This document shows, in pieces, positions 16,262-25,198 of a stretch of 64,000 nucleotides of DNA (the stretch's first letter is position 1; each line of letters starts with the position of its first letter). The position numbers and the translations under genes are program-made. The notes beneath the pieces are model-generated. The model saw nothing but the letters and a program-made list of their open reading frames with translations, was not told the origin of the DNA and did no database searches. The stretch comes from Armatimonadota bacterium (GTDB lineage: Bacteria > Armatimonadota > Fimbriimonadia > Fimbriimonadales > GBS-DC), in contig JABWCR010000004.1 in the NCBI GenBank assembly GCA_013359125.1, forward strand, positions 84,607 through 148,606, written 5' to 3'.

Positions 16262-17557
16262 TTACTCGATGGTTTCTTCGTTTTGGACGACTCGGAGCGC
16301 GATTGCATTAGTCGTCGATTTAGCGATCTTGACCCTTTCGGCGATGGTGTATCCGGGGAACCATACAATTCCCATATTGTCGGCGATCATAGGCCAGTGC
16401 GGGCGGTTCTGTCGCGGGATCTTTCGGTCGATGAAAATGTCCGACAGAAGTTTGCTGCCGTTTAGTCCAAGCGGGGCCATGCGTTCGCGAGGTTGGGCGC
16501 TTCTGACAATGAGCGAGCCTGCAATCTTGTCGGCATCGATAGTGGCGGACATTGGGTCGGACGTTTCAACTTGGTCTGGCGGCGTCTCGCGCATGAAAAT
16601 GGTGAAGTTGCCCCAGCGCGTTTCGTTGGCGAGGCGCATAGGGCTAGGGGGCGCTATGGGTTGTAACGATAATCGAGCTTCGCTGTTCTTGACCTCGATA
16701 AGTCCCGCTGGAGTGGCAGTCTTCAGGTCTGATTGGTCTGCGATGGCTTTGGCGAGAGTGCGACTGGAGGCCAGGTCCAATTCTGGAAACTGTCGGCGCA
16801 GCGCGCGCCGAACGAGCGGCTCCGGCGGATTTGGACCAAGGTTTGCCGCAAGCTGATCGAGCAGCGCATCTTCTTCTTGAGCGATGTCGGCCAAGTCGCA
16901 CAGTTTCGTCTTCCAATGTGGCGCGATCTGATCAAGGGCAGGGGCAATGTTCTTTCGAACTTGAACGCGAAGTCGGGAAATATCCTCGTTCGTGCTGTCT
17001 TGGCATAGCGCAAGCCCGGAGTTAGAGACTGCTGCATGAACAAGGCTTCGAGGCGCATCGATCAGGGGTCGGACGATCGTCAGATCGCCATCGGTCCGAA
17101 TTGCTGGGATGCCGCCAAGCCCTTTCAGTCCCGAACCTCGAAGGATGTTCATCAGCACGGTCTCGGCACGGTCGTCTTGCGTGTGGCCGGTGGCGATGAT
17201 CTTGGCGCCGAATCTAATCGCCGCTGTCCGGAAGGAATCGTATCGCGCCTCTCGGCCGGCCTCTTCGATGTTCAGGCGCCTTTCCTTGGCTAACTTCGGC
17301 ACATCGACCTCGGCAAGTTCGAACTGTACGGAGAGCGCATGGCAAATGGCCTTGCATCGATCGACATCCGCACGGGCATCGTTTCGCATAAGGTGGTTTA
17401 CATGCAAAGCGATGGGCTCAATGTCTGGCAGTTGGCGGAGGCATAGGAGCAGGGCAGTGGAATCGGGTCCGCCGCTGAAGCCGACGATGACACGGCCTGA
17501 TAGCGGCATCTTCCGGTTTTCTATCGTTTTGCGAACGATACACAGCAGTCGCTCCAT
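16262..17557 (-). CDS. tilS: tRNA(Ile)-lysidine synthetase
   Basis: The PP-loop VGFSGGPDSTALL is present. The gene sits immediately upstream of ftsH, a common arrangement. Confidence 0.85.
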   Translation of the reverse strand: MERLLCIVRKTIENRKMPLSGRVIVGFSGGPDSTALLLCLRQLPDIEPIALHVNHLMRNDARADVDRCKAICHALSVQFELAEVDVPKLAKERRLNIEEAGREARYDSFRTAAIRFGAKIIATGHTQDDRAETVLMNILRGSGLKGLGGIPAIRTDGDLTIVRPLIDAPRSLVHAAVSNSGLALCQDSTNEDISRLRVQVRKNIAPALDQIAPHWKTKLCDLADIAQEEDALLDQLAANLGPNPPEPLVRRALRRQFPELDLASSRTLAKAIADQSDLKTATPAGLIEVKNSEARLSLQPIAPPSPMRLANETRWGNFTIFMRETPPDQVETSDPMSATIDADKIAGSLIVRSAQPRERMAPLGLNGSKLLSDIFIDRKIPRQNRPHWPMIADNMGIVWFPGYTIAERVKIAKSTTNAIALRVVQNEETIE

Positions 17558-17595
17558 TTGCTAAGGATACCGCGGTCAGGTAGGATGGGTTTGTC

Positions 17596-18465
17596 ATGCG
17601 GACAGCGGTCGCGCTGGGATTAGGCCAAGAACAGTTAGACGTTAAGCTTTGCTGCAACAGCGGGCAGGCCTTTCGGTGGATTCGGTCGGGCGACGAGTGG
17701 GTTGGCATCGATGGCCAGCGTTTGTTTCGATTGTGGTTGACCGACCTTGGCTGGGTCGGCGAATCAGAACCTCGGGCGGGCGACGAGGAGGCCCTCAGCC
17801 GCTATTTTCGGTTGGACGCCGATTTGAACGCAATTCGAAGTCGGATTGCAGTTTGCGATGAGCGGTGGGCACCGATCGTTGCCGGATTGCCAGGTTTGCG
17901 GCTGATACGATGGTCCGTGCCCGAAGAGTGCCTGATTTCCTTTCTTTGTACGTCGGCTAACAACATCCCTCGGATTACGGGCATGATAGCGCGACTGTGC
18001 GAGGCTTATGGAGAGCCCTTGAGAGGGGCGGGGAAGATGTTTCCCACTGTCGATCGGCTCTCATTGCTCGAGCCAGAGGCGCTTTATGCTCTGGGATTCG
18101 GGTATCGTGGGCGTACCGTGGCGAATGTGGCTCGATCGCTGGTCGAGCGCGGGGACGGATGGTTGGATTCTTTGCGAGAGGTCGGTTATTGGGAAGCAAA
18201 GCGAGAGTTGATGCAACTGCCAGGCGTAGGGGCAAAGATAGCCGATTGCGTCTTGTTGTTGGGTTTGGATTTTGCCGAGGCGGTTCCGGTCGACACGCAC
18301 CTGTGGCAGGCTGTGGCCAAGATCGCGCTGCCCGAGCTAAGGGGCGCCTCGATCACGGAAGCGAGGTACCGGATGGTCGTCGATTTCTTTCACGATCGAT
18401 TTGGCGCGCTGTCCAACTGGGCGCACCAGTATCTGTTTACGGCCCATTTGAGGGGCATGCTATGA
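17596..18465 (+). CDS. ogg: 8-oxoguanine DNA glycosylase / N-glycosylase-DNA lyase (OGG1 type, HhH-GPD)
   Basis: The N-terminus LCCNSGQAFRW is present. The HhH-GPD region reads LMQLPGVGAKIADCVLLLGL...VPVDTHLWQ. Confidence 0.75.
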   Translation: MRTAVALGLGQEQLDVKLCCNSGQAFRWIRSGDEWVGIDGQRLFRLWLTDLGWVGESEPRAGDEEALSRYFRLDADLNAIRSRIAVCDERWAPIVAGLPGLRLIRWSVPEECLISFLCTSANNIPRITGMIARLCEAYGEPLRGAGKMFPTVDRLSLLEPEALYALGFGYRGRTVANVARSLVERGDGWLDSLREVGYWEAKRELMQLPGVGAKIADCVLLLGLDFAEAVPVDTHLWQAVAKIALPELRGASITEARYRMVVDFFHDRFGALSNWAHQYLFTAHLRGML

Positions 18466-18872
18466 AACTCTGCTATGACGGGAACTGCCGGTTTTGCGCA
18501 AGGGCCGCGCGCTGGGTGCAAAAGAAGGTTCCCGCTATCCAGATAGAACCTCGGTCCGACCTCAGCGCTGTCGAACTCCATACTCAGGGCAGGGTTTATT
18601 CTGGGATGGAAGCGATCGTGGTCGCTCTTGCGCGACAAGGCGGCTTGTGGCATCTCTGGCGCGTTTACTATGCGCCTGGGGTTCGGCAAGCAATGAACGG
18701 GGCGTATGCGCTGTTTGCAGCCAACAGGCATAAATTGGGATGCGCTATAGAAGGGAGCGCTTCGCCTGTTCCAAGCGCGCCACCGTCCTCTCCTTGCCCA
18801 GCGCAGCGATCATCTCAAAGAGACCAGGACCGGTCGTCCGACCGCTCAGCGCCAAGCGAACGGGATGAATAA
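18462..18872 (+). CDS. DCC-family thiol-disulfide oxidoreductase (DUF393-like)
   Basis: The ATG at 18462 gives MKLCYDGNCRFCARAARWV, the DCC CxxC motif. Only the last 137 codons of track ORF 17997..18872 look genuine. The 3' end overlaps convergent gltX by 128 nt. Confidence 0.6.
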   Translation: MKLCYDGNCRFCARAARWVQKKVPAIQIEPRSDLSAVELHTQGRVYSGMEAIVVALARQGGLWHLWRVYYAPGVRQAMNGAYALFAANRHKLGCAIEGSASPVPSAPPSSPCPAQRSSQRDQDRSSDRSAPSERDE

Positions 18873-20181
18873 CGTGCCCGTTTGGAACGCCCAGCCATGC
18901 GATCGTGTCGCGCGTTACGCGCTCGATCTCCTCTGGTTCGAACCGTTCTAAGTCGGTGTAGCTGCGTATCAGGGCGTCCAGCATCTGGCCGATGTGCGGC
19001 ATCCCTTGCCATTTCTTGGCTGCCGCCTCATCCATTGCGATTCGGTCTGTAAAAAAGAACGAAAGCAGTTCGGGCAGTTCGGATAAGAGTTTGACCTTTT
19101 CTTGTTCTAAGGGGATGACTTTGCGGGCGTAATCCAGGTTTTCTTCCGCGACGATGCCAGCCTTTCTTAGAAACGGGACGGCGGCTTCGACAAACTCATC
19201 GATAGGCAGCCGTTTGATGTACTGGCCGTTCATCCACTTGAGTTTGTCATGGTGAAAGACGAACGGATTGGTGGAGATGCGATCGAGGCTGAAGTCCCGT
19301 ATGATTTCTTCGCGGCTCATGATTTCGCGCTCGTCTCCGGGCGACCAGCCGCAAAGCGCTAAGAAGTTGAACATCGCGTCGCTGAGGTAGCCCTGCTGGA
19401 TAAAGTCGCTGAACTGGACGGCGCCGTGCCTCTTGGAAAGTTTGCTGCCGTCCGGCCCCATCAGCAAGGGCACGTGGTTGAGCTTAGGGGGCTCCCAGCC
19501 CAACGCGGCGTAGAGCTGAACGTGCCGCGGCATCGAACTGATCCACTCGTCGCCTCGGATGACGTGCGTAATTTCCATCAGGTGGTCGTCCACCACATTG
19601 GCCAGATGGTAGGTTGGGTAGCCGTCCGATTTGAGCATTACAAAGTCGTCGACAAGGATGTTTCGGAACTCGATGAGACCGTGAATCCCGTCGTTGTATT
19701 GCGTAACGCCTTCGAGCGGCATGGCAAAGCGAACGACATAGGGATCGCCTTCGTGCGCCTTGACCTCATCCTTGCTGAGGCGACGGCAACGACGATCGTA
19801 GCCGGTCGGCTGTTTGCGGGCTTCCTGCTCCTTGCGCATAGCATCAAGGATCTCGGGCGTGCAGAAGCACTTGTAGGCTTTGCCCTCATCGACGAGCCGA
19901 TGGGCGATCTCTTGATAGATGTGCGTTCGTTCGGACTGATGGTAAGGCGCAAACGGCCCGCCGACGATTGGACCTTCGTCATAGTCCAGACCGAGCCACT
20001 GGATGGAGGCCAGGATGTCCTCCTCCGAACCTGGGACATACCGGTTGCGGTCTGTATCCTCGATTCGAACGATGAACTTTCCGCCGGAACCTCTTGCAAA
20101 GACCCAGTTGAACAGCGCGGTGCGAATGTTGCCTACGTGGGGCATGCCCGTGGGGCTGGGCGCATATCGAACTCTGACCAT
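18745..20181 (-). CDS. gltX: glutamyl-tRNA synthetase
   Basis: RYAPSPTGMPHVGNIRTALFNW is the HIGH-type motif. KLSKRHG is the KMSKS-type motif. Confidence 0.9.
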   Translation of the reverse strand: MVRVRYAPSPTGMPHVGNIRTALFNWVFARGSGGKFIVRIEDTDRNRYVPGSEEDILASIQWLGLDYDEGPIVGGPFAPYHQSERTHIYQEIAHRLVDEGKAYKCFCTPEILDAMRKEQEARKQPTGYDRRCRRLSKDEVKAHEGDPYVVRFAMPLEGVTQYNDGIHGLIEFRNILVDDFVMLKSDGYPTYHLANVVDDHLMEITHVIRGDEWISSMPRHVQLYAALGWEPPKLNHVPLLMGPDGSKLSKRHGAVQFSDFIQQGYLSDAMFNFLALCGWSPGDEREIMSREEIIRDFSLDRISTNPFVFHHDKLKWMNGQYIKRLPIDEFVEAAVPFLRKAGIVAEENLDYARKVIPLEQEKVKLLSELPELLSFFFTDRIAMDEAAAKKWQGMPHIGQMLDALIRSYTDLERFEPEEIERVTRDTIAWLGVPNGHVIHPVRLALSGRTTGPGLFEMIAALGKERTVARLEQAKRSLL

Positions 20182-20187
20182 TATCGA

Positions 20188-21282
20188 TTAGTGTCCATAG
20201 TAGGCATGGATCAGGTCTAAGGCGACCTCGCGGACGTTGTTCGACTGTGGCGCGCTTTGGCTCTTAACAATGGCTTTCACCGCTTTGGTCGGGTGAACTT
20301 TGCGCTGGGCAATTTGGTCGAGCCATGCGTCGGGGTCGGGAATCTCGAACTCAAAGCCGTTGACCGTAAGGAAAGAAAGCAGACCAATGAGAGCGGTCCT
20401 GCGATTGCCATCGCCAAACGGACGGTATAGGAGGGTCGAGGCAACAAACTGGCCTGCTTGCTTGGCCCAGTCCTTGCTTTCTCCATAGCCGTAAAGGAAG
20501 AACGCGCACTCTTCTAGGGCGTCAAATTCGTAAGAGTTCGTGCGTCCGGTAGCTTCAGAATTGATCCAAATGAGGTCTTGGAGCGTAAGGTATTGGTAAG
20601 AAAACGAAGGACCGGGCGCCGGTTCTAGCGCGATCGAATTGTGCTGGGCAATGAGCGATTCGGCTTTGACCAACTTGCTTCCGATCGCTCGCACCGCCGA
20701 TTCTGCGATTTCAAGCCAACGCCGGTCGTCTTTCTTCCCATCCGATGCTCCTGCGCACGCGCCCGGCAAATCTTCCTCGATTCGGGTCAAATCCACCTCG
20801 AATCCATTGGCTCGCAGGGTCGCATACGCCGCGCTGGCGGCGACCGCTGCATTACCAATCGGAAACGGCTTTCGGTCGAGGATCGCGTTGGCCAAAGCCA
20901 ATGCGTAGGCTCTAGGATCAAGTTTTTGGCCCGCAATTTCGAGGCAATCTTCTATCTCGGCCGAAGAGACGCTGCCTTGCTCGCTCGCAATCGACAGATG
21001 AAGCAAGATTAGTTCGCGGGCGGTCGGTTGACGAAATCGCCGTTCAAAGGGAATTAGGGCCGATGCTGCGTTTGAGAGCGCATTGAGTTCTGCGGCGCTC
21101 GCAATACCGGCCTGCGCTTTGCCCAGAATGTCAAGCGCGCCAACGTCCAGTTTGTCTTTTATGTATTCGGCTTCTGCAATGATCCTTCCCGCACGAACCT
21201 CTTTCAGCGGTCCGACTTCCTGAATCTCAAACGTCATACCGAAGAGTCCTCCGTGACCTGACGGCAAAACAGGCCGAGCCAA
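20188..21282 (-). CDS. tandem Doc/Fic-fold protein with degenerate active-site motifs
   Basis: The second half (YRPFGDGNRRTALIGLLSFLTVNGFEF) aligns with the P1 Doc motif HIFNDANKRTALNSALLFLRRNGVQV, with His replaced by Arg. The first half (RKPFPIGNAAVAASAAYATLRANGFEV) is a second, more degenerate copy. The stop lies 6 nt before the gltX start. Confidence 0.6.
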   Translation of the reverse strand: MARPVLPSGHGGLFGMTFEIQEVGPLKEVRAGRIIAEAEYIKDKLDVGALDILGKAQAGIASAAELNALSNAASALIPFERRFRQPTARELILLHLSIASEQGSVSSAEIEDCLEIAGQKLDPRAYALALANAILDRKPFPIGNAAVAASAAYATLRANGFEVDLTRIEEDLPGACAGASDGKKDDRRWLEIAESAVRAIGSKLVKAESLIAQHNSIALEPAPGPSFSYQYLTLQDLIWINSEATGRTNSYEFDALEECAFFLYGYGESKDWAKQAGQFVASTLLYRPFGDGNRRTALIGLLSFLTVNGFEFEIPDPDAWLDQIAQRKVHPTKAVKAIVKSQSAPQSNNVREVALDLIHAYYGH

Positions 21283-21325
21283 AGGGATCGCATTGGCTCA
21301 GCCTGTGAAATGTAGTCTGCAACGA

Positions 21326-21736
21326 TCAGCAACCGAGGCCGAAGTTTGAGAGTACGATTGCGAGGTCTGTGTCGTCGATTATCCCGTCATCGTTCTCGTC
21401 GCCAAGACCCGTGCCGCCGAAGCCGCCCAGCACGATTGCTAGATCGGTATCGTCGACGCAACCGTCCCAGTTGACATCACCGGCCAATCGGGGACGCCAG
21501 AATCCGCCCGTTAGCGTGAAGGCGCCTCCAGAGAGGGCATTGGCGCCCGTAGCGTCAGGCTGCCCCACGGTGCCGCCCATTTTGAAGGCGCCGCCCGTGG
21601 CAAAGGTGATTCCGCCGCCGTCGATCGTGTTCCAGGTTAGGTCAAACCCGCCGCCCGTCTGAGCGCTGGCGCCTACGATCAGGCACACCGAAAGAACGAC
21701 CATGAAGCCCGTCTTCTTAAAAAAGGATCCAACCAT
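21326..21736 (-). CDS. small secreted Gly-rich protein with a C-terminal GC-terminated dockerin-like module
   Basis: The ATG at 21736 follows AAGGAGG. A signal/TM segment FMVVLSVCLIVGASAQ is present. The C-terminus is GDVNWDGCVDDTDLAIVLGGFGGTGLGDENDDGIIDDTDLAIVLSNFGLGC-stop. Confidence 0.7.
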   Translation of the reverse strand: MVGSFFKKTGFMVVLSVCLIVGASAQTGGGFDLTWNTIDGGGITFATGGAFKMGGTVGQPDATGANALSGGAFTLTGGFWRPRLAGDVNWDGCVDDTDLAIVLGGFGGTGLGDENDDGIIDDTDLAIVLSNFGLGC

Positions 21737-21799
21737 CTCGCTGCCTCCTTTACGACCTGTGGATATTATACGCCACATCCGCCAGAGATTCCTTCCACG

Positions 21800-24700
21800 T
21801 CAGGAAGATTTTTGAAAGTTCTCGATTTCTTTCGAGGCCAGTTGCAGCGCATCGACCACTTTCAACGCTTGCCCTTCGGCTATCAAGCGCTGCCAATTCT
21901 TTGCGCCCAGGGCGTTCTTCGCTTTATCGACTGCCGCTTCCCATCGTTGCTGATCGTCGGGCATCGCATTAAGCAGGTCGTCTTCCAGACGGTCCATCGA
22001 GGCTCCGACCAACACGCCTGCAGAATCCAAGAGGCCGACATGAACAAAGAGCTGTGCGGCGACTCGCAGGGTTGCAACCTGGTTGACCGGAGAACCGACC
22101 TCGAAGGCATCTTGTACGCATTGGGCACAGAAGTCGAACGACTCCCTCACCCGATTCAGTCGATAAAGAAGCTCGACCCCCGCCTCGTAAGCCCCAAAGA
22201 TGCCTCGATTGTCATTGATTTCTTTGCTCTTGGCCAAGGCGCGTTGAGCATAGTCCCATCCTTGTTCGAGTTCGCCTGAATAGAGAAGCGTGGATGCCAA
22301 GTTGCGGTAATTCTTGGCTTCCCATAGCATGTTGCGTTGTCGAAGGTTGAACTCGAGCGACGATTCGTACAGTTCTCTGGCTTTGGCATAGTTCCCTCGG
22401 CTGCGCTGCACGTTGCCCATGTTGTTCTTGATCGCCGCTACGCCGGACAGATCGCCGATACGGGCATAGTATTTGAGCGCTTGTTGGTACGCCTCGTCGG
22501 CCGCTTCGATGTCTGCCTTGTATTGGTGCGTCGTGCCGATGTTGAGGTAGTTATGGGCGAGCCAAGAGTAGTTGCCCATTTTCAGGTTGATGTCTCTGGC
22601 CTCTTCAAACAGGGCCATGGCTTCGTCCAGTCTGTCGATCTGCTGCAAGGGCAGGCCCATATTGTTCAGGCAGCCGGCAACTCCCCTCAAGTCTCCTTGC
22701 TCCCGACGAAGCTTCATAGCGATCTCTATGTGCTTAATTCCATCAAGATAGTTGCCTTGATTGGTGTATGCATTACCGAGACCATTGTGGACCTCGGCAA
22801 TTCCAATTCTGTGGTTCATGCTCTCTGCCAGTTCGAGCGCCTTTCCGTAAATCTGTTCGGTATCTGCATGTCTGGCTTGGGACCAGGCGACCGTCGCCTT
22901 GGCAAGCAACATTCGCAGATAGAGCGTTTGATCCTGCGGGTCGATAATCTGTTCTGCTTGGTCTGCAGCCGACTGAGCGCCCACATAGTCGCCGACGCGT
23001 ATACAGCTTGCGGATTTCGTTACCAAAGCGATCCCATGCCACACCGTATTGGCAGGTTTAGCGGCCAAGTACTTTTCTAGCCATCGCAGAATCTCGCCCC
23101 AATAGCCCTTAACCCCAAAGTAGTGCCGAAGCGCCTCGATCAACCGGACGCCTTGATCCCACTCGCCATGAGATTCTGCAAAGGCGAGCGCCGCCCAGAC
23201 GTTTTCAATCTTGGAGTCCCACTTGTCGAACAACTCGAGCTGCCGCTCGCTTAGCATCGCCCCGCAGTCTTCCTCCGCACGATCGATGAAGTACTGCAGG
23301 TGTCGAAGTCGGAGCTTCGTTTGTTCGTGCGGCGCCAGTTGCGACCATCCGTAGGCTTGCAACGTTTCTAGCAGCCGATACCGTCGTTCGTCCGCCGCGT
23401 CGAATCCAATGATCAGGCTCGATTCCTGAAGTTGGTGCAGCCCCTCGAGCGCATCGGGCCACTCGAGAATGGCCTCAGCCGCTTCCAGATTCCAGCCGCC
23501 TCTAAAAACCGAGAGTTGACTGAACCGAGTTCTGAGTTCTGGGTCTAACAGCTTCATGCTCCATTCGACGGTGCCGCGCAGCGTGCGCTGTCTCTCGGCA
23601 AGGTCCTTTCTTGGAGACGTTAGCCAGTCTAACCTCTGCGAAATTCGTTCGACCATTTGCCTTGGGCTGAGCAGGCGGATGCGCGCTGCCGCCAACTCTA
23701 TCGCAAGCGGTATGCCCTCAAGTTCGCGGCAAAGTTGTGCTACAGACGCTGCGTTTCCCGCTGAAAGGGCAAAATCGGGCATTTTCTGCTGGGCGCGATC
23801 GATGAAGAGTTCGACGCAAGGATTGCTCTGAAGGCTCTCCAGTTCGTCGTCCGTAGGGAGCGGCAGAAGGCCAATGGGAAACTCTTGCTCGGCGGCCAGA
23901 CCAAGGGGCAGGCGAGAGGTAACGATAATCCTAAGCGCGCTCGCTTGGTCCAGAAGTTTCGGAAGCGTCTCGACGCCGCCTTCGATCAGTTGCTCGAAGT
24001 TGTCCAATATCAGGAGCGATGGCGATTCGGAGAGGACCGCCGCCGACTGATCGAGCGTGGAGGCTCCTCGAATAGGGGTTAGGCGCAGAACAGAGGCGAT
24101 CGCATCGGGAATTATGGACGGGTCGTCCACATCTTGAAGTTGAACGAACCACGCGCCGCCTGGAAAGGCCGACTGCGCGTTACGGGCAGACTGTAGCGCT
24201 AATCTCGTCTTTCCTACGCCTCCAAAGCCGATGAGAGTGATCAGCCTTGGTCCTTGTGCATCGCCGAGCATGTCGCAGAGGCGCTCCAGTTCTGACTCTC
24301 GTCCTACAAAGCGCGATCGGGAAGAAGGAAGATTGCCTTTCCGCGATTCTGGGCTTACTGCCGCCGGCGTTTGCTCGACTTCTTCTGGCGCGGGCAGAAT
24401 CGCTGCCGCAACGCCCACGACGACCGGGCGCGATCGTTCTAGGACTGGGGTCCGTACAGTTTGACGGGCAAATTTGCCTTGAAGGGCATTCTGCGCCTCT
24501 TGCGACGGCTCGTTGCCCCACTCTTCTTTGATCATCTTCTCCAGCGCTTGGTATTGCCTTTGAGCGGACGCTCTGTCGCCGCTAGCGACCATAAGTCGGA
24601 TCGCCGCAACGTGCGCGTCTTCCCGCAACGGGTCTGCGGCCACTGCTCGTTTAGCGTACTCCAGCCCTTTTCTTGGATTGTGCGAATGGAGTTCGGCCAA

Positions 24701-25198
24701 TCGATTGAGCGCGGATATATAGGCGTCGTGAAGGCGCGGCTGCTCGTCCATGATCCAGTCGGCATAAAATCCGGGCATCAGTTCTCCCTTGAAGAGGCCG
24801 ACGGCTTGTTCGAGAGCGGCCATCTCTGCCGATGGATCGGAGATCTTGTTAGCCGCCTCGATCAGACGCGCAAACCGGTGGGCGTCGCACGTTGCAAAAT
24901 CGGGATTGAGGCCGACCGTGCGCCGATCGGCCTGGAGCACAGTTCCCGGCTCTATGCCTGCCGGTTCTAATTGGTTGCGAAGCGAGGAGACCGCCTTGCT
25001 GAGGCTGTTGCGCGCCTGATCGGGGTCGCTGTCGGGCCACAGCATCTCGATGAGCGTTTCGCGCGGATGCTCTCGACCCAAAAAGTAGGCGCAGTATGCC
25101 AGCAGAAGCGCGGTCTTCTCGGTTCTGAACCGAGCGACGACGCGGCCAGAGACTATGGCCTTGATTCCGCCAAAGAGTTCGACCTGGCAAAGCTCCAT
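21800..25198 (-). CDS. SARP/BTAD winged-helix + NB-ARC (STAND) ATPase + TPR transcriptional regulator (AfsR-like)
   Basis: The N-terminal region shows DNA-binding/BTAD features (LLAYCAYFLGREHPRETLIEMLWPD...; ...REDAHVAAIRLMVASGDRASA). Walker A is LIGFGGVGKTRLAL. The C-terminal half contains many TPR-like repeats (NNMGN..., G.Y..A...YE.AL). Confidence 0.8.
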   Translation of the reverse strand: MELCQVELFGGIKAIVSGRVVARFRTEKTALLLAYCAYFLGREHPRETLIEMLWPDSDPDQARNSLSKAVSSLRNQLEPAGIEPGTVLQADRRTVGLNPDFATCDAHRFARLIEAANKISDPSAEMAALEQAVGLFKGELMPGFYADWIMDEQPRLHDAYISALNRLAELHSHNPRKGLEYAKRAVAADPLREDAHVAAIRLMVASGDRASAQRQYQALEKMIKEEWGNEPSQEAQNALQGKFARQTVRTPVLERSRPVVVGVAAAILPAPEEVEQTPAAVSPESRKGNLPSSRSRFVGRESELERLCDMLGDAQGPRLITLIGFGGVGKTRLALQSARNAQSAFPGGAWFVQLQDVDDPSIIPDAIASVLRLTPIRGASTLDQSAAVLSESPSLLILDNFEQLIEGGVETLPKLLDQASALRIIVTSRLPLGLAAEQEFPIGLLPLPTDDELESLQSNPCVELFIDRAQQKMPDFALSAGNAASVAQLCRELEGIPLAIELAAARIRLLSPRQMVERISQRLDWLTSPRKDLAERQRTLRGTVEWSMKLLDPELRTRFSQLSVFRGGWNLEAAEAILEWPDALEGLHQLQESSLIIGFDAADERRYRLLETLQAYGWSQLAPHEQTKLRLRHLQYFIDRAEEDCGAMLSERQLELFDKWDSKIENVWAALAFAESHGEWDQGVRLIEALRHYFGVKGYWGEILRWLEKYLAAKPANTVWHGIALVTKSASCIRVGDYVGAQSAADQAEQIIDPQDQTLYLRMLLAKATVAWSQARHADTEQIYGKALELAESMNHRIGIAEVHNGLGNAYTNQGNYLDGIKHIEIAMKLRREQGDLRGVAGCLNNMGLPLQQIDRLDEAMALFEEARDINLKMGNYSWLAHNYLNIGTTHQYKADIEAADEAYQQALKYYARIGDLSGVAAIKNNMGNVQRSRGNYAKARELYESSLEFNLRQRNMLWEAKNYRNLASTLLYSGELEQGWDYAQRALAKSKEINDNRGIFGAYEAGVELLYRLNRVRESFDFCAQCVQDAFEVGSPVNQVATLRVAAQLFVHVGLLDSAGVLVGASMDRLEDDLLNAMPDDQQRWEAAVDKAKNALGAKNWQRLIAEGQALKVVDALQLASKEIENFQKSS

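Follow-up and report, generated by a model that had tools for sequence, protein, structure and literature searches.

We analyzed a 64,000-nucleotide stretch of the genome of an Armatimonadota bacterium of the order Fimbriimonadales (contig JABWCR010000004.1, positions 84,607 to 148,606; hereafter the window), in which an earlier note, made from the letters alone, had described a protein with two halves resembling the toxin Doc of phage P1, encoded just upstream of the glutamyl-tRNA synthetase gene gltX.

The locus and its tandem Doc-fold protein

The open reading frame (ORF) of the tandem gene is present at positions 20188-21282 of the minus strand, and its likely start is the ATG at 21237, giving a coding sequence (20188-21237, −) for 349 amino acids (aa; protein P0001) that ends in a TAA stop at 20188-20190. 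We took this product because a Shine-Dalgarno-like GGAGGA (21247-21252, −), read from the sequence, lies 9 nucleotides (nt) upstream of the ATG and because a database protein with 99% identity, P0002, is likewise 349 aa long; an alternative TTG start at 21282 would lengthen the protein by 15 aa. A 6-nt spacer (20182-20187, −), also read from the sequence, separates the stop from the ATG (20181) of the co-oriented gltX, which encodes a glutamyl-tRNA synthetase (GluRS) of 478 aa (18745-20181, −; Pfam tRNA-synt_1c, E 1.1e-101; Anticodon_2, E 1.1e-31). The gap, the shared orientation and the identity of gltX are therefore as the earlier note had given them.

All parts of the tandem protein are encoded on this same minus strand. 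The protein begins with a three-helix extension (aa 1-61; 21055-21237), delimited by the alignment and by AlphaFold2 helices at residues 9-25, 32-42 and 48-61, for which no homology outside the tandem family was detectable. A degenerate Doc-like domain follows (about aa 66-162; 20752-21042), assigned by profile comparisons, and it holds a remnant of the Fic/Doc motif, KPFPIGNAAVAA (aa 123-134; 20836-20871), with Lys in place of the catalytic His. A long inter-domain helix, placed by AlphaFold2 secondary structure (aa 174-201; 20635-20718), leads through a linker, disordered by the AlphaFold2 predicted local distance difference test (pLDDT; aa 200-211), into the C-terminal Doc-fold domain (aa 212-349; 20191-20604), which is identified by Foldseek, PHROG, TIGR01550 and the tree described below, and whose motif, RPFGDGNRRTAL (aa 272-283; 20389-20424), has Arg in place of the catalytic His.

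The evidence for a Doc fold is strongest in structural terms for the C-half. We modelled the window protein with AlphaFold2 using 20 homologs (pLDDT 82.6), and the best Foldseek matches of the model were the P1 Doc structures 3dd7 and 3k33 (probability 1.0), with a Doc-normalised template modelling (TM) score of 0.73-0.75 and a root-mean-square deviation of 2.7-2.9 Å over 121-123 of about 124 residues. As modelled, the C-half has the alpha-helical core of the Fic/Doc (Fido) fold. Profile matches fall in the same region: PHROG 577, "Doc-like toxin", aligned to aa 215-304 (1.4e-8), TIGR01550 DOC_P1 to aa 248-300 (26.9 bits, E 4.3e-6; below its curated cut-off of 38.65 bits) and Pfam Fic (PF02661) to aa 253-290 (16.6 bits, E 0.014; below its gathering threshold of 24 bits), a threshold that two relatives exceed (P0031, 27.8 bits; P0049, 28.5 bits). 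HMMER aligned YRPFGDGNRRTALIGLLSFLTVNGFE with GHIFNDANKRTALNSALLFLRRNGVQ of P1 Doc without gaps, so that Arg272 falls on His66, and the C-half motif RPFGDGNRRTAL matches the Doc motif HIFNDANKRTAL column by column.

The two halves are homologous to each other. BLASTP aligned them over 82 aa at 26% identity (E 1e-4), and the family profiles of the N- and C-halves, compared with hhalign, gave a probability of 97.3% (E 1.7e-11, 90 columns), pairing PTARELILLHLSIA with LTLQDLIWINSEA and KPFPIGNAAVAA with RPFGDGNRRTAL. The profile of the single-domain family introduced below matched the N-half of the window gene (E 2.9e-6), and the hidden Markov model (HMM) of that family matched both halves in all 25 tandem family members examined. 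The N-half family profile had as its top Protein Data Bank match the Doc-family structure 9vzc_A (E 0.0043), aligned on the motif, and a divergent tandem homolog, P0025, exceeded the Pfam Fic threshold with 39.9 bits in two stretches. The assignment of the N-half to the Doc fold rests on this profile evidence. The window protein thus contains a tandem Doc fold, as the earlier note had proposed: the duplication is borne out by the comparison of the halves and by the family HMM, and the C-half by its resemblance to P1 Doc and to PHROG 577.

Family, inheritance and catalytic motif

To place the protein in its family, we searched 1.84 billion representatives exhaustively with the profile (E ≤ 1e-3) and found 516 proteins. 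A handful have two domains, and the remainder are proteins of about 150 aa that match the C-half only, with E values down to about 1e-44, and that share the motifs YLTVQDxLWIN, LEEAxxxQYxYGxS, QAAxF, PFxxGNxxTAF and FLxxNG. The profile of these single-domain proteins again matched Doc structures (9vzc, 1.3e-7; P1 Doc, 1.7e-4). The majority of members are unnamed; a few are called "prophage maintenance system killer protein" in IMG, and, of the remaining named members, all those in NCBI are "hypothetical protein". A pattern scan of 185,579 species genomes, with patterns built from the Doc-like family itself and thus biased toward close relatives, returned 102 relatives, which all belong to Armatimonadota except for one contig, under the labels Fimbriimonadaceae, Fimbriimonadales and Chthonomonas, including C. 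calidirosea. The exception is a 191-kb contig labelled Methanoregulaceae archaeon (L239, JADZEW010000035.1), whose Doc-like protein is of the Armatimonadota type (48% identity over the best-matching segment); this contig was probably misbinned into an archaeal metagenome-assembled genome (MAG).

Whole-genome searches found one copy of the gene in the window's own genome and matches in 82 of the 301 genomes sampled from the phylum and in 30 of the 33 genomes of the window's order, nearly always as a single copy. Of the 29 genomes of the window's family, 26 have the tandem form, all 19 of the high-quality ones among them, and it occurs in all six genera; outside this family the matches were always single-domain. 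A maximum-likelihood tree of all domains tracks taxonomic families, with the tandem C-halves sister to the single-domain genes of the order's two other families, the window lineage basal among the C-halves, and the N-halves forming a separate, long-branched clade (support 100/100). From the tree and the distribution, the C-half is orthologous to the single-domain Armatimonadota protein of about 150 aa, the product of a core gene that is passed on vertically; the N-half would be either an old paralog or a fast-evolving duplicate. The family is single-copy, vertically inherited and found only in Armatimonadota, and its tandem form is specific to one taxonomic family. The earlier note had overlooked this phylum-wide family behind its one protein. 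In G136, a genome of another family, an N-half-like ORF of 270 aa and a C-half-like ORF of 194 aa lie adjacent with a 31-nt overlap (L132:4303-5687, −), either a split, two-gene version or a frameshifted form.

Such a record leaves very little room for a functionless, decaying remnant of a toxin-antitoxin (TA) module, a reading that would account for the lost catalytic residues and for the absence of an antitoxin in most genomes and that the conservation data already contradict: the reading frame is intact in 100 of 100 loci, save two matches that each contain one in-frame stop, alignment columns of the tandem family are on average 64% identical, the gene is retained in nearly every genome of the order, and its tree is congruent with taxonomy over phylum-level divergence.

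Neither half of the window protein has the catalytic motif HxFx(D/E)(A/G)N(K/G)R; the C-half reads RPFGDGNRR and the N-half KPFPIGNAA. The C-half is unusually Doc-like, in that it keeps F, D, G, N, R, R, T and A and differs in having Arg for His. Among 20 tandem homologs, the His position is held in the C-half by Arg in 19 and His in 1, and in the N-half by Gln in 17 and by Lys, Arg and Ser in 1 each; P, F and N are nearly invariant in both halves, and G, T and A are invariant in the C-half. In 144 single-domain representatives, His is absent from 137 (R 39, A 37, K 21, Q 11, S 10, H 7, N 6), the acidic position is D or E in 30 and the final Arg is present in 17, while P, F, G, N, T and A are each retained in 115-137. 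PFxxGN is a strictly conserved structural part of FIC loops (PMC8401265). What is conserved in these alignments is the scaffold of the loop and not any set of catalytic residues. Both replacements of His that the earlier note had read are upheld, and since the loss of His is conserved across the tandem family, its term "pseudoenzyme" seems fair. Its statement that the N-half has lost the NKR triad holds for the K and the R; the Asn is retained, as GN in the window protein and as YN in relatives.

Is the protein still an enzyme, with one or both domains carrying out a non-canonical reaction that uses another base, another nucleotide or substrate, or hydrolysis or de-modification? The PFxxGN scaffold and the TA that follows it are strongly constrained, and the window C-half keeps D276, N278, R279 and R280. 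There are also precedents, as Fic families with non-canonical motifs perform other modifications (PMC8401265) and the Fic2 protein of Campylobacter fetus has a degenerate core motif and is still toxic, though in a His-dependent manner (PMC5651007). However, the His position is not fixed to one alternative (R, A, K, Q, S, H, N or P), and the acidic residue and the final Arg are present in small minorities of the single-domain representatives. Because of this variation, we read the pattern as relaxed catalytic constraint and not as new, conserved chemistry, and we regard a non-canonical enzyme as unlikely.

Genomic neighborhood

Next, we characterized the linkage to gltX. No Shine-Dalgarno-like sequence was read before the gltX ATG, and a consensus scan of the junction predicted neither a promoter nor a terminator. 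In this genome, the tandem gene is probably co-transcribed with gltX, and, since gltX has no Shine-Dalgarno-like sequence of its own, translation of the two may perhaps be coupled by termination and reinitiation. Within the family, the tandem gene lies directly upstream of gltX in the window genus (g1, 1/1, 6 nt) and in three other genomes of two genera (g160, 2/2, 21 nt; g163, 1/1, 4 nt), and a metagenomic homolog has gltX directly downstream after 20 nt. In a further genus (g162), gltX is downstream on the same strand in 3 of 4 genomes, with 0.7-2.8 kb between. The two genes are unlinked in the largest genus (g161, 0 of 14 genomes with both genes located), where 314 kb separate them in the closed genome G307, and in g164 (0/4), where NamZ follows the tandem gene in place of gltX. 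Four of the six genera therefore keep the adjacency, one of them with insertions, and two have lost it. With the window lineage basal in the C-half tree, the adjacency would most simply be ancestral to the family and have been lost at least twice.

The insertions in g162, both on the opposite strand, are a Uma2-family nuclease gene in one lineage and a 396-aa ORF in another. The nuclease-like gene (PF05685) sits exactly between the tandem gene and gltX (L002:7246-7878, −; L154:5723-6337, −), and by its position it interrupts the presumed operon in that genus.

Beyond the family, we surveyed the neighbors of 100 loci (about 4.5 kb of flank where the contig allowed). Their 197 immediate neighbors formed 121 families, of which about 60 representatives were scanned against Pfam, including nearly all of those ≥320 aa and hence of sufficient length for a synthetase. 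gltX was a neighbor of none of 75 single-domain orthologs in other families. Synthetases made up 2 of the 121 neighbor families (gltX and one ileS), where about 1 would be expected (about 22 genes in an assumed 2,600; Poisson P about 0.27), and we rejected a general linkage to synthetases for this lack of enrichment. The ileS gene lies 49 nt downstream of a single-domain Doc-like gene in G078 (L072:1689-4448, −), co-oriented, with a DNA polymerase III alpha-like gene upstream, and is the sole other synthetase adjacency in the 100 loci. A homolog in one MAG adjoins pheT, an arrangement not repeated in 30 loci of the window's family.

These data bear on the possibility that GluRS has a dedicated partner or regulator in this non-catalytic protein, with both expressed from a coupled operon. 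Its appeal lies in the tight junction without a Shine-Dalgarno sequence, in the similar gaps in related genomes, in an adjacency that is ancestral to the family and falls on the same branch as the tandem architecture, and in the two homologs beside ileS and pheT. It is set back by the loss of the adjacency in the largest genus and in a second one, by the opposite-strand genes that break it in a third, by the single-domain orthologs, none of which is near gltX, by the chance-level number of synthetase neighbors and by the commonest tight partner elsewhere, which is an oxidoreductase (see below). We consider such a partner improbable, slightly more so than a non-canonical enzyme. A bolder version, in which an early-domesticated Doc pseudokinase binds EF-Tu or an aminoacyl-tRNA synthetase and its tandem form is co-translated with GluRS as a dedicated partner, is a shade less probable again. 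The position beside gltX looks like lineage-specific, inherited gene order and not a conserved functional pairing. The earlier note had offered the adjacency as a possible pointer to function and had proposed a survey of orthologs; the linkage recurred in four genera of the family and in no single-domain ortholog elsewhere, which makes the link to GltX weak. If it were true, the GltX idea would matter more, but the comparative evidence is not in its favor.

The commonest tight partner elsewhere, and the most conserved neighbor outside the window's order, is a Gfo/Idh/MocA oxidoreductase gene (about 310-330 aa), found just downstream of the single-domain gene and co-oriented at a spacing of -1 to 15 nt in at least 13 genomes that represent two families (L139:2039-3031, +, and 12 further loci; families f9 and f28).

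We also considered the toxin-antitoxin context. In the window, no antitoxin-sized ORF fits the 88 nt upstream of the ATG, beyond which lies a dockerin-like gene of 150 aa, and tblastn of the ribbon-helix-helix (RHH) protein of relatives against positions 17000-25000 gave no match, so the earlier note was right that the gene has no Phd-like partner. In several Fimbriimonadaceae genera (g3, g7 and g16), a 74-aa Arc/CopG/ParD-like RHH gene stands directly upstream of the single-domain Doc-like gene, and these Doc-like proteins lack the catalytic His despite the TA-like layout. Such RHH genes were found at L094:5027-5248 (−) and at L093, L119, L122, L105, L099, L112 and L243, and they sometimes overlap the Doc-like gene. 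The window gene has neither the adjacent small antitoxin gene nor the sporadic, multi-copy or mobile distribution of a type II TA system, and we rejected a classical Phd-Doc module given the single copy, the near-universal distribution and the tree congruent with taxonomy. PADLOC gave no match for two tandem proteins and one weak match (E 0.006) for a single-domain relative; we rejected a defence system for want of a convincing match. No link to mobile-element genes was seen in the 100 loci.

An immunity or decoy role, in which a dead Doc titrates antitoxins or shields the target of Doc toxins arriving on mobile elements, would make sense of a retained Doc surface and of the RHH genes upstream in some genera, and a few genomes do hold weaker, separate Doc/Fic-like matches (E 1e-6 to 1e-10). 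We think it quite improbable, as the gene matches no PADLOC defence family, is strictly vertically inherited in single copy and keeps no company with mobile-element genes.

Among the other genes near the pair in the window, the upstream neighbor (21326-21778, −) encodes the Gly-rich, 150-aa protein, which matches dockerin type I weakly (E 0.0025), and this gene is itself downstream of one for a 1132-aa BTAD/NB-ARC/TPR-like regulator (21800-25198). Beyond gltX, on the opposite strand, is an 8-oxoguanine DNA glycosylase-like gene with OGG_N and HhH-GPD domains (17596-18462, +).

A Doc-derived protein and its possible role

The explanation that we favor, with confidence a little better than even, is that the protein is a domesticated, probably catalytically inactive member of the Doc branch of the Fido fold, with a binding role, descended from an RHH-Doc module and, in this genome, expressed in coupling with gltX. 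The uncertainty in this explanation is almost wholly in the mechanism and not in the identity of the protein. An ancestral Doc-type toxin gene would have become a vertically inherited, single-copy chromosomal gene in Armatimonadota, and the RHH gene still found upstream in some relatives suggests that it came from an RHH-Doc toxin-antitoxin module. The core of the active-site loop, PFxxGNxxTA, would have been kept while the catalytic His was lost, as were the acidic and basic residues of the motif in most members. One Fimbriimonadales family would then have gained a second, faster-evolving Doc-like domain and the N-terminal helical extension, and the resulting tandem protein most probably acts without transfer of a phosphoryl group or AMP, as a scaffold for binding or regulation by way of the old substrate-docking surface.

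Several observations weigh against this explanation. A role as a non-catalytic binder is deduced from the loss of one class of residue, and His is back at the motif position in about 5-9% of members. Because the window C-half retains the D, G, N, R and R of the Doc motif, binding of a nucleotide or phosphate is plausible, and catalysis by another base may occur there. Many single-domain members have a His-rich, acidic loop just before the last helix (e.g., EHEAHGEHG, SEHHHHDPD or ESHGHGTHGH), and in these members the missing His could conceivably come from this loop, which may also be a metal site; the window protein does not have it. The N-half modelled alone (pLDDT 79.7) resembles Doc weakly (Foldseek probability 0.6-0.77, TM score 0.54-0.59, E >2). 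Finally, the branch on which the tandem architecture appeared is also the one on which the gltX adjacency arose, which is compatible with a functional link within the family.

Among known proteins, P1 Doc and the chromosomal Doc toxins (TIGR01550; 3k33, 3dd7 and 9vzc) come closest, and the domesticated Doc protein proposed here shares the six-helix Fido core with them. The elements come in the same order as in Doc: an L-T-x-x-D-L-I-x-I-N helix, an LEEA helix, the PFxxGNxxTA loop and helix, and FLxxNG. As in Doc modules, some relatives have an antitoxin-like RHH gene upstream. Unlike P1 Doc, the window protein has Arg (C-half) and Lys (N-half) at the equivalent of His66, carries two domains and an N-terminal extension on one chain and lacks a Phd-type partner; its scores are also below the TIGR01550 and Pfam cut-offs. 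Doc genes are sporadic and mobile, whereas the Armatimonadota gene is single-copy, vertically inherited and confined to one phylum. For this protein, we therefore suggest the terms Doc-fold or Doc-derived rather than Doc toxin: it has the fold, and it falls short of the score thresholds, the catalytic motif and those tests of a TA module that could be run.

There is some precedent for a FIC domain used without catalysis. The FIC domain of Bartonella BepC binds its target, GEF-H1, with no enzymatic activity detected (PMC8401265), and its PFxxGN scaffold is conserved, as it is here. BepC nevertheless keeps the catalytic His and binds nucleotide, and, as an effector of the Fic branch, it is secreted and directed at the host, whereas the protein described here is of the Doc branch, cytoplasmic and housekeeping-like. 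C. fetus Fic2 likewise combines a degenerate core motif with a link to translation in a bacterial Fido protein; unlike the window protein, it retains the His, needs it for toxicity and belongs to a TA network (PMC5651007). A limited literature search found no publication on a phylum-wide Doc family without the His or on a tandem Doc protein.

Work on Fic/Doc proteins has dealt with them almost wholly as enzymes, be they AMPylases, kinases or phosphocholinases. The whole family described here, which derives from Doc and comprises several hundred sequence clusters, has dispensed with the catalytic His. Much of this little-studied phylum has nonetheless kept the gene, and in one lineage the domain has been duplicated. 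The automated label "prophage maintenance system killer protein" and others like it should be treated with caution for genes of this family. The Fimbriimonas and Chthonomonas calidirosea groups include cultured species, and as orthologs are found under both labels, experiments may be possible. If the explanation that we favor is true, the family would offer a clear example from nature of a toxin fold taken on for a cellular role that is not toxic.

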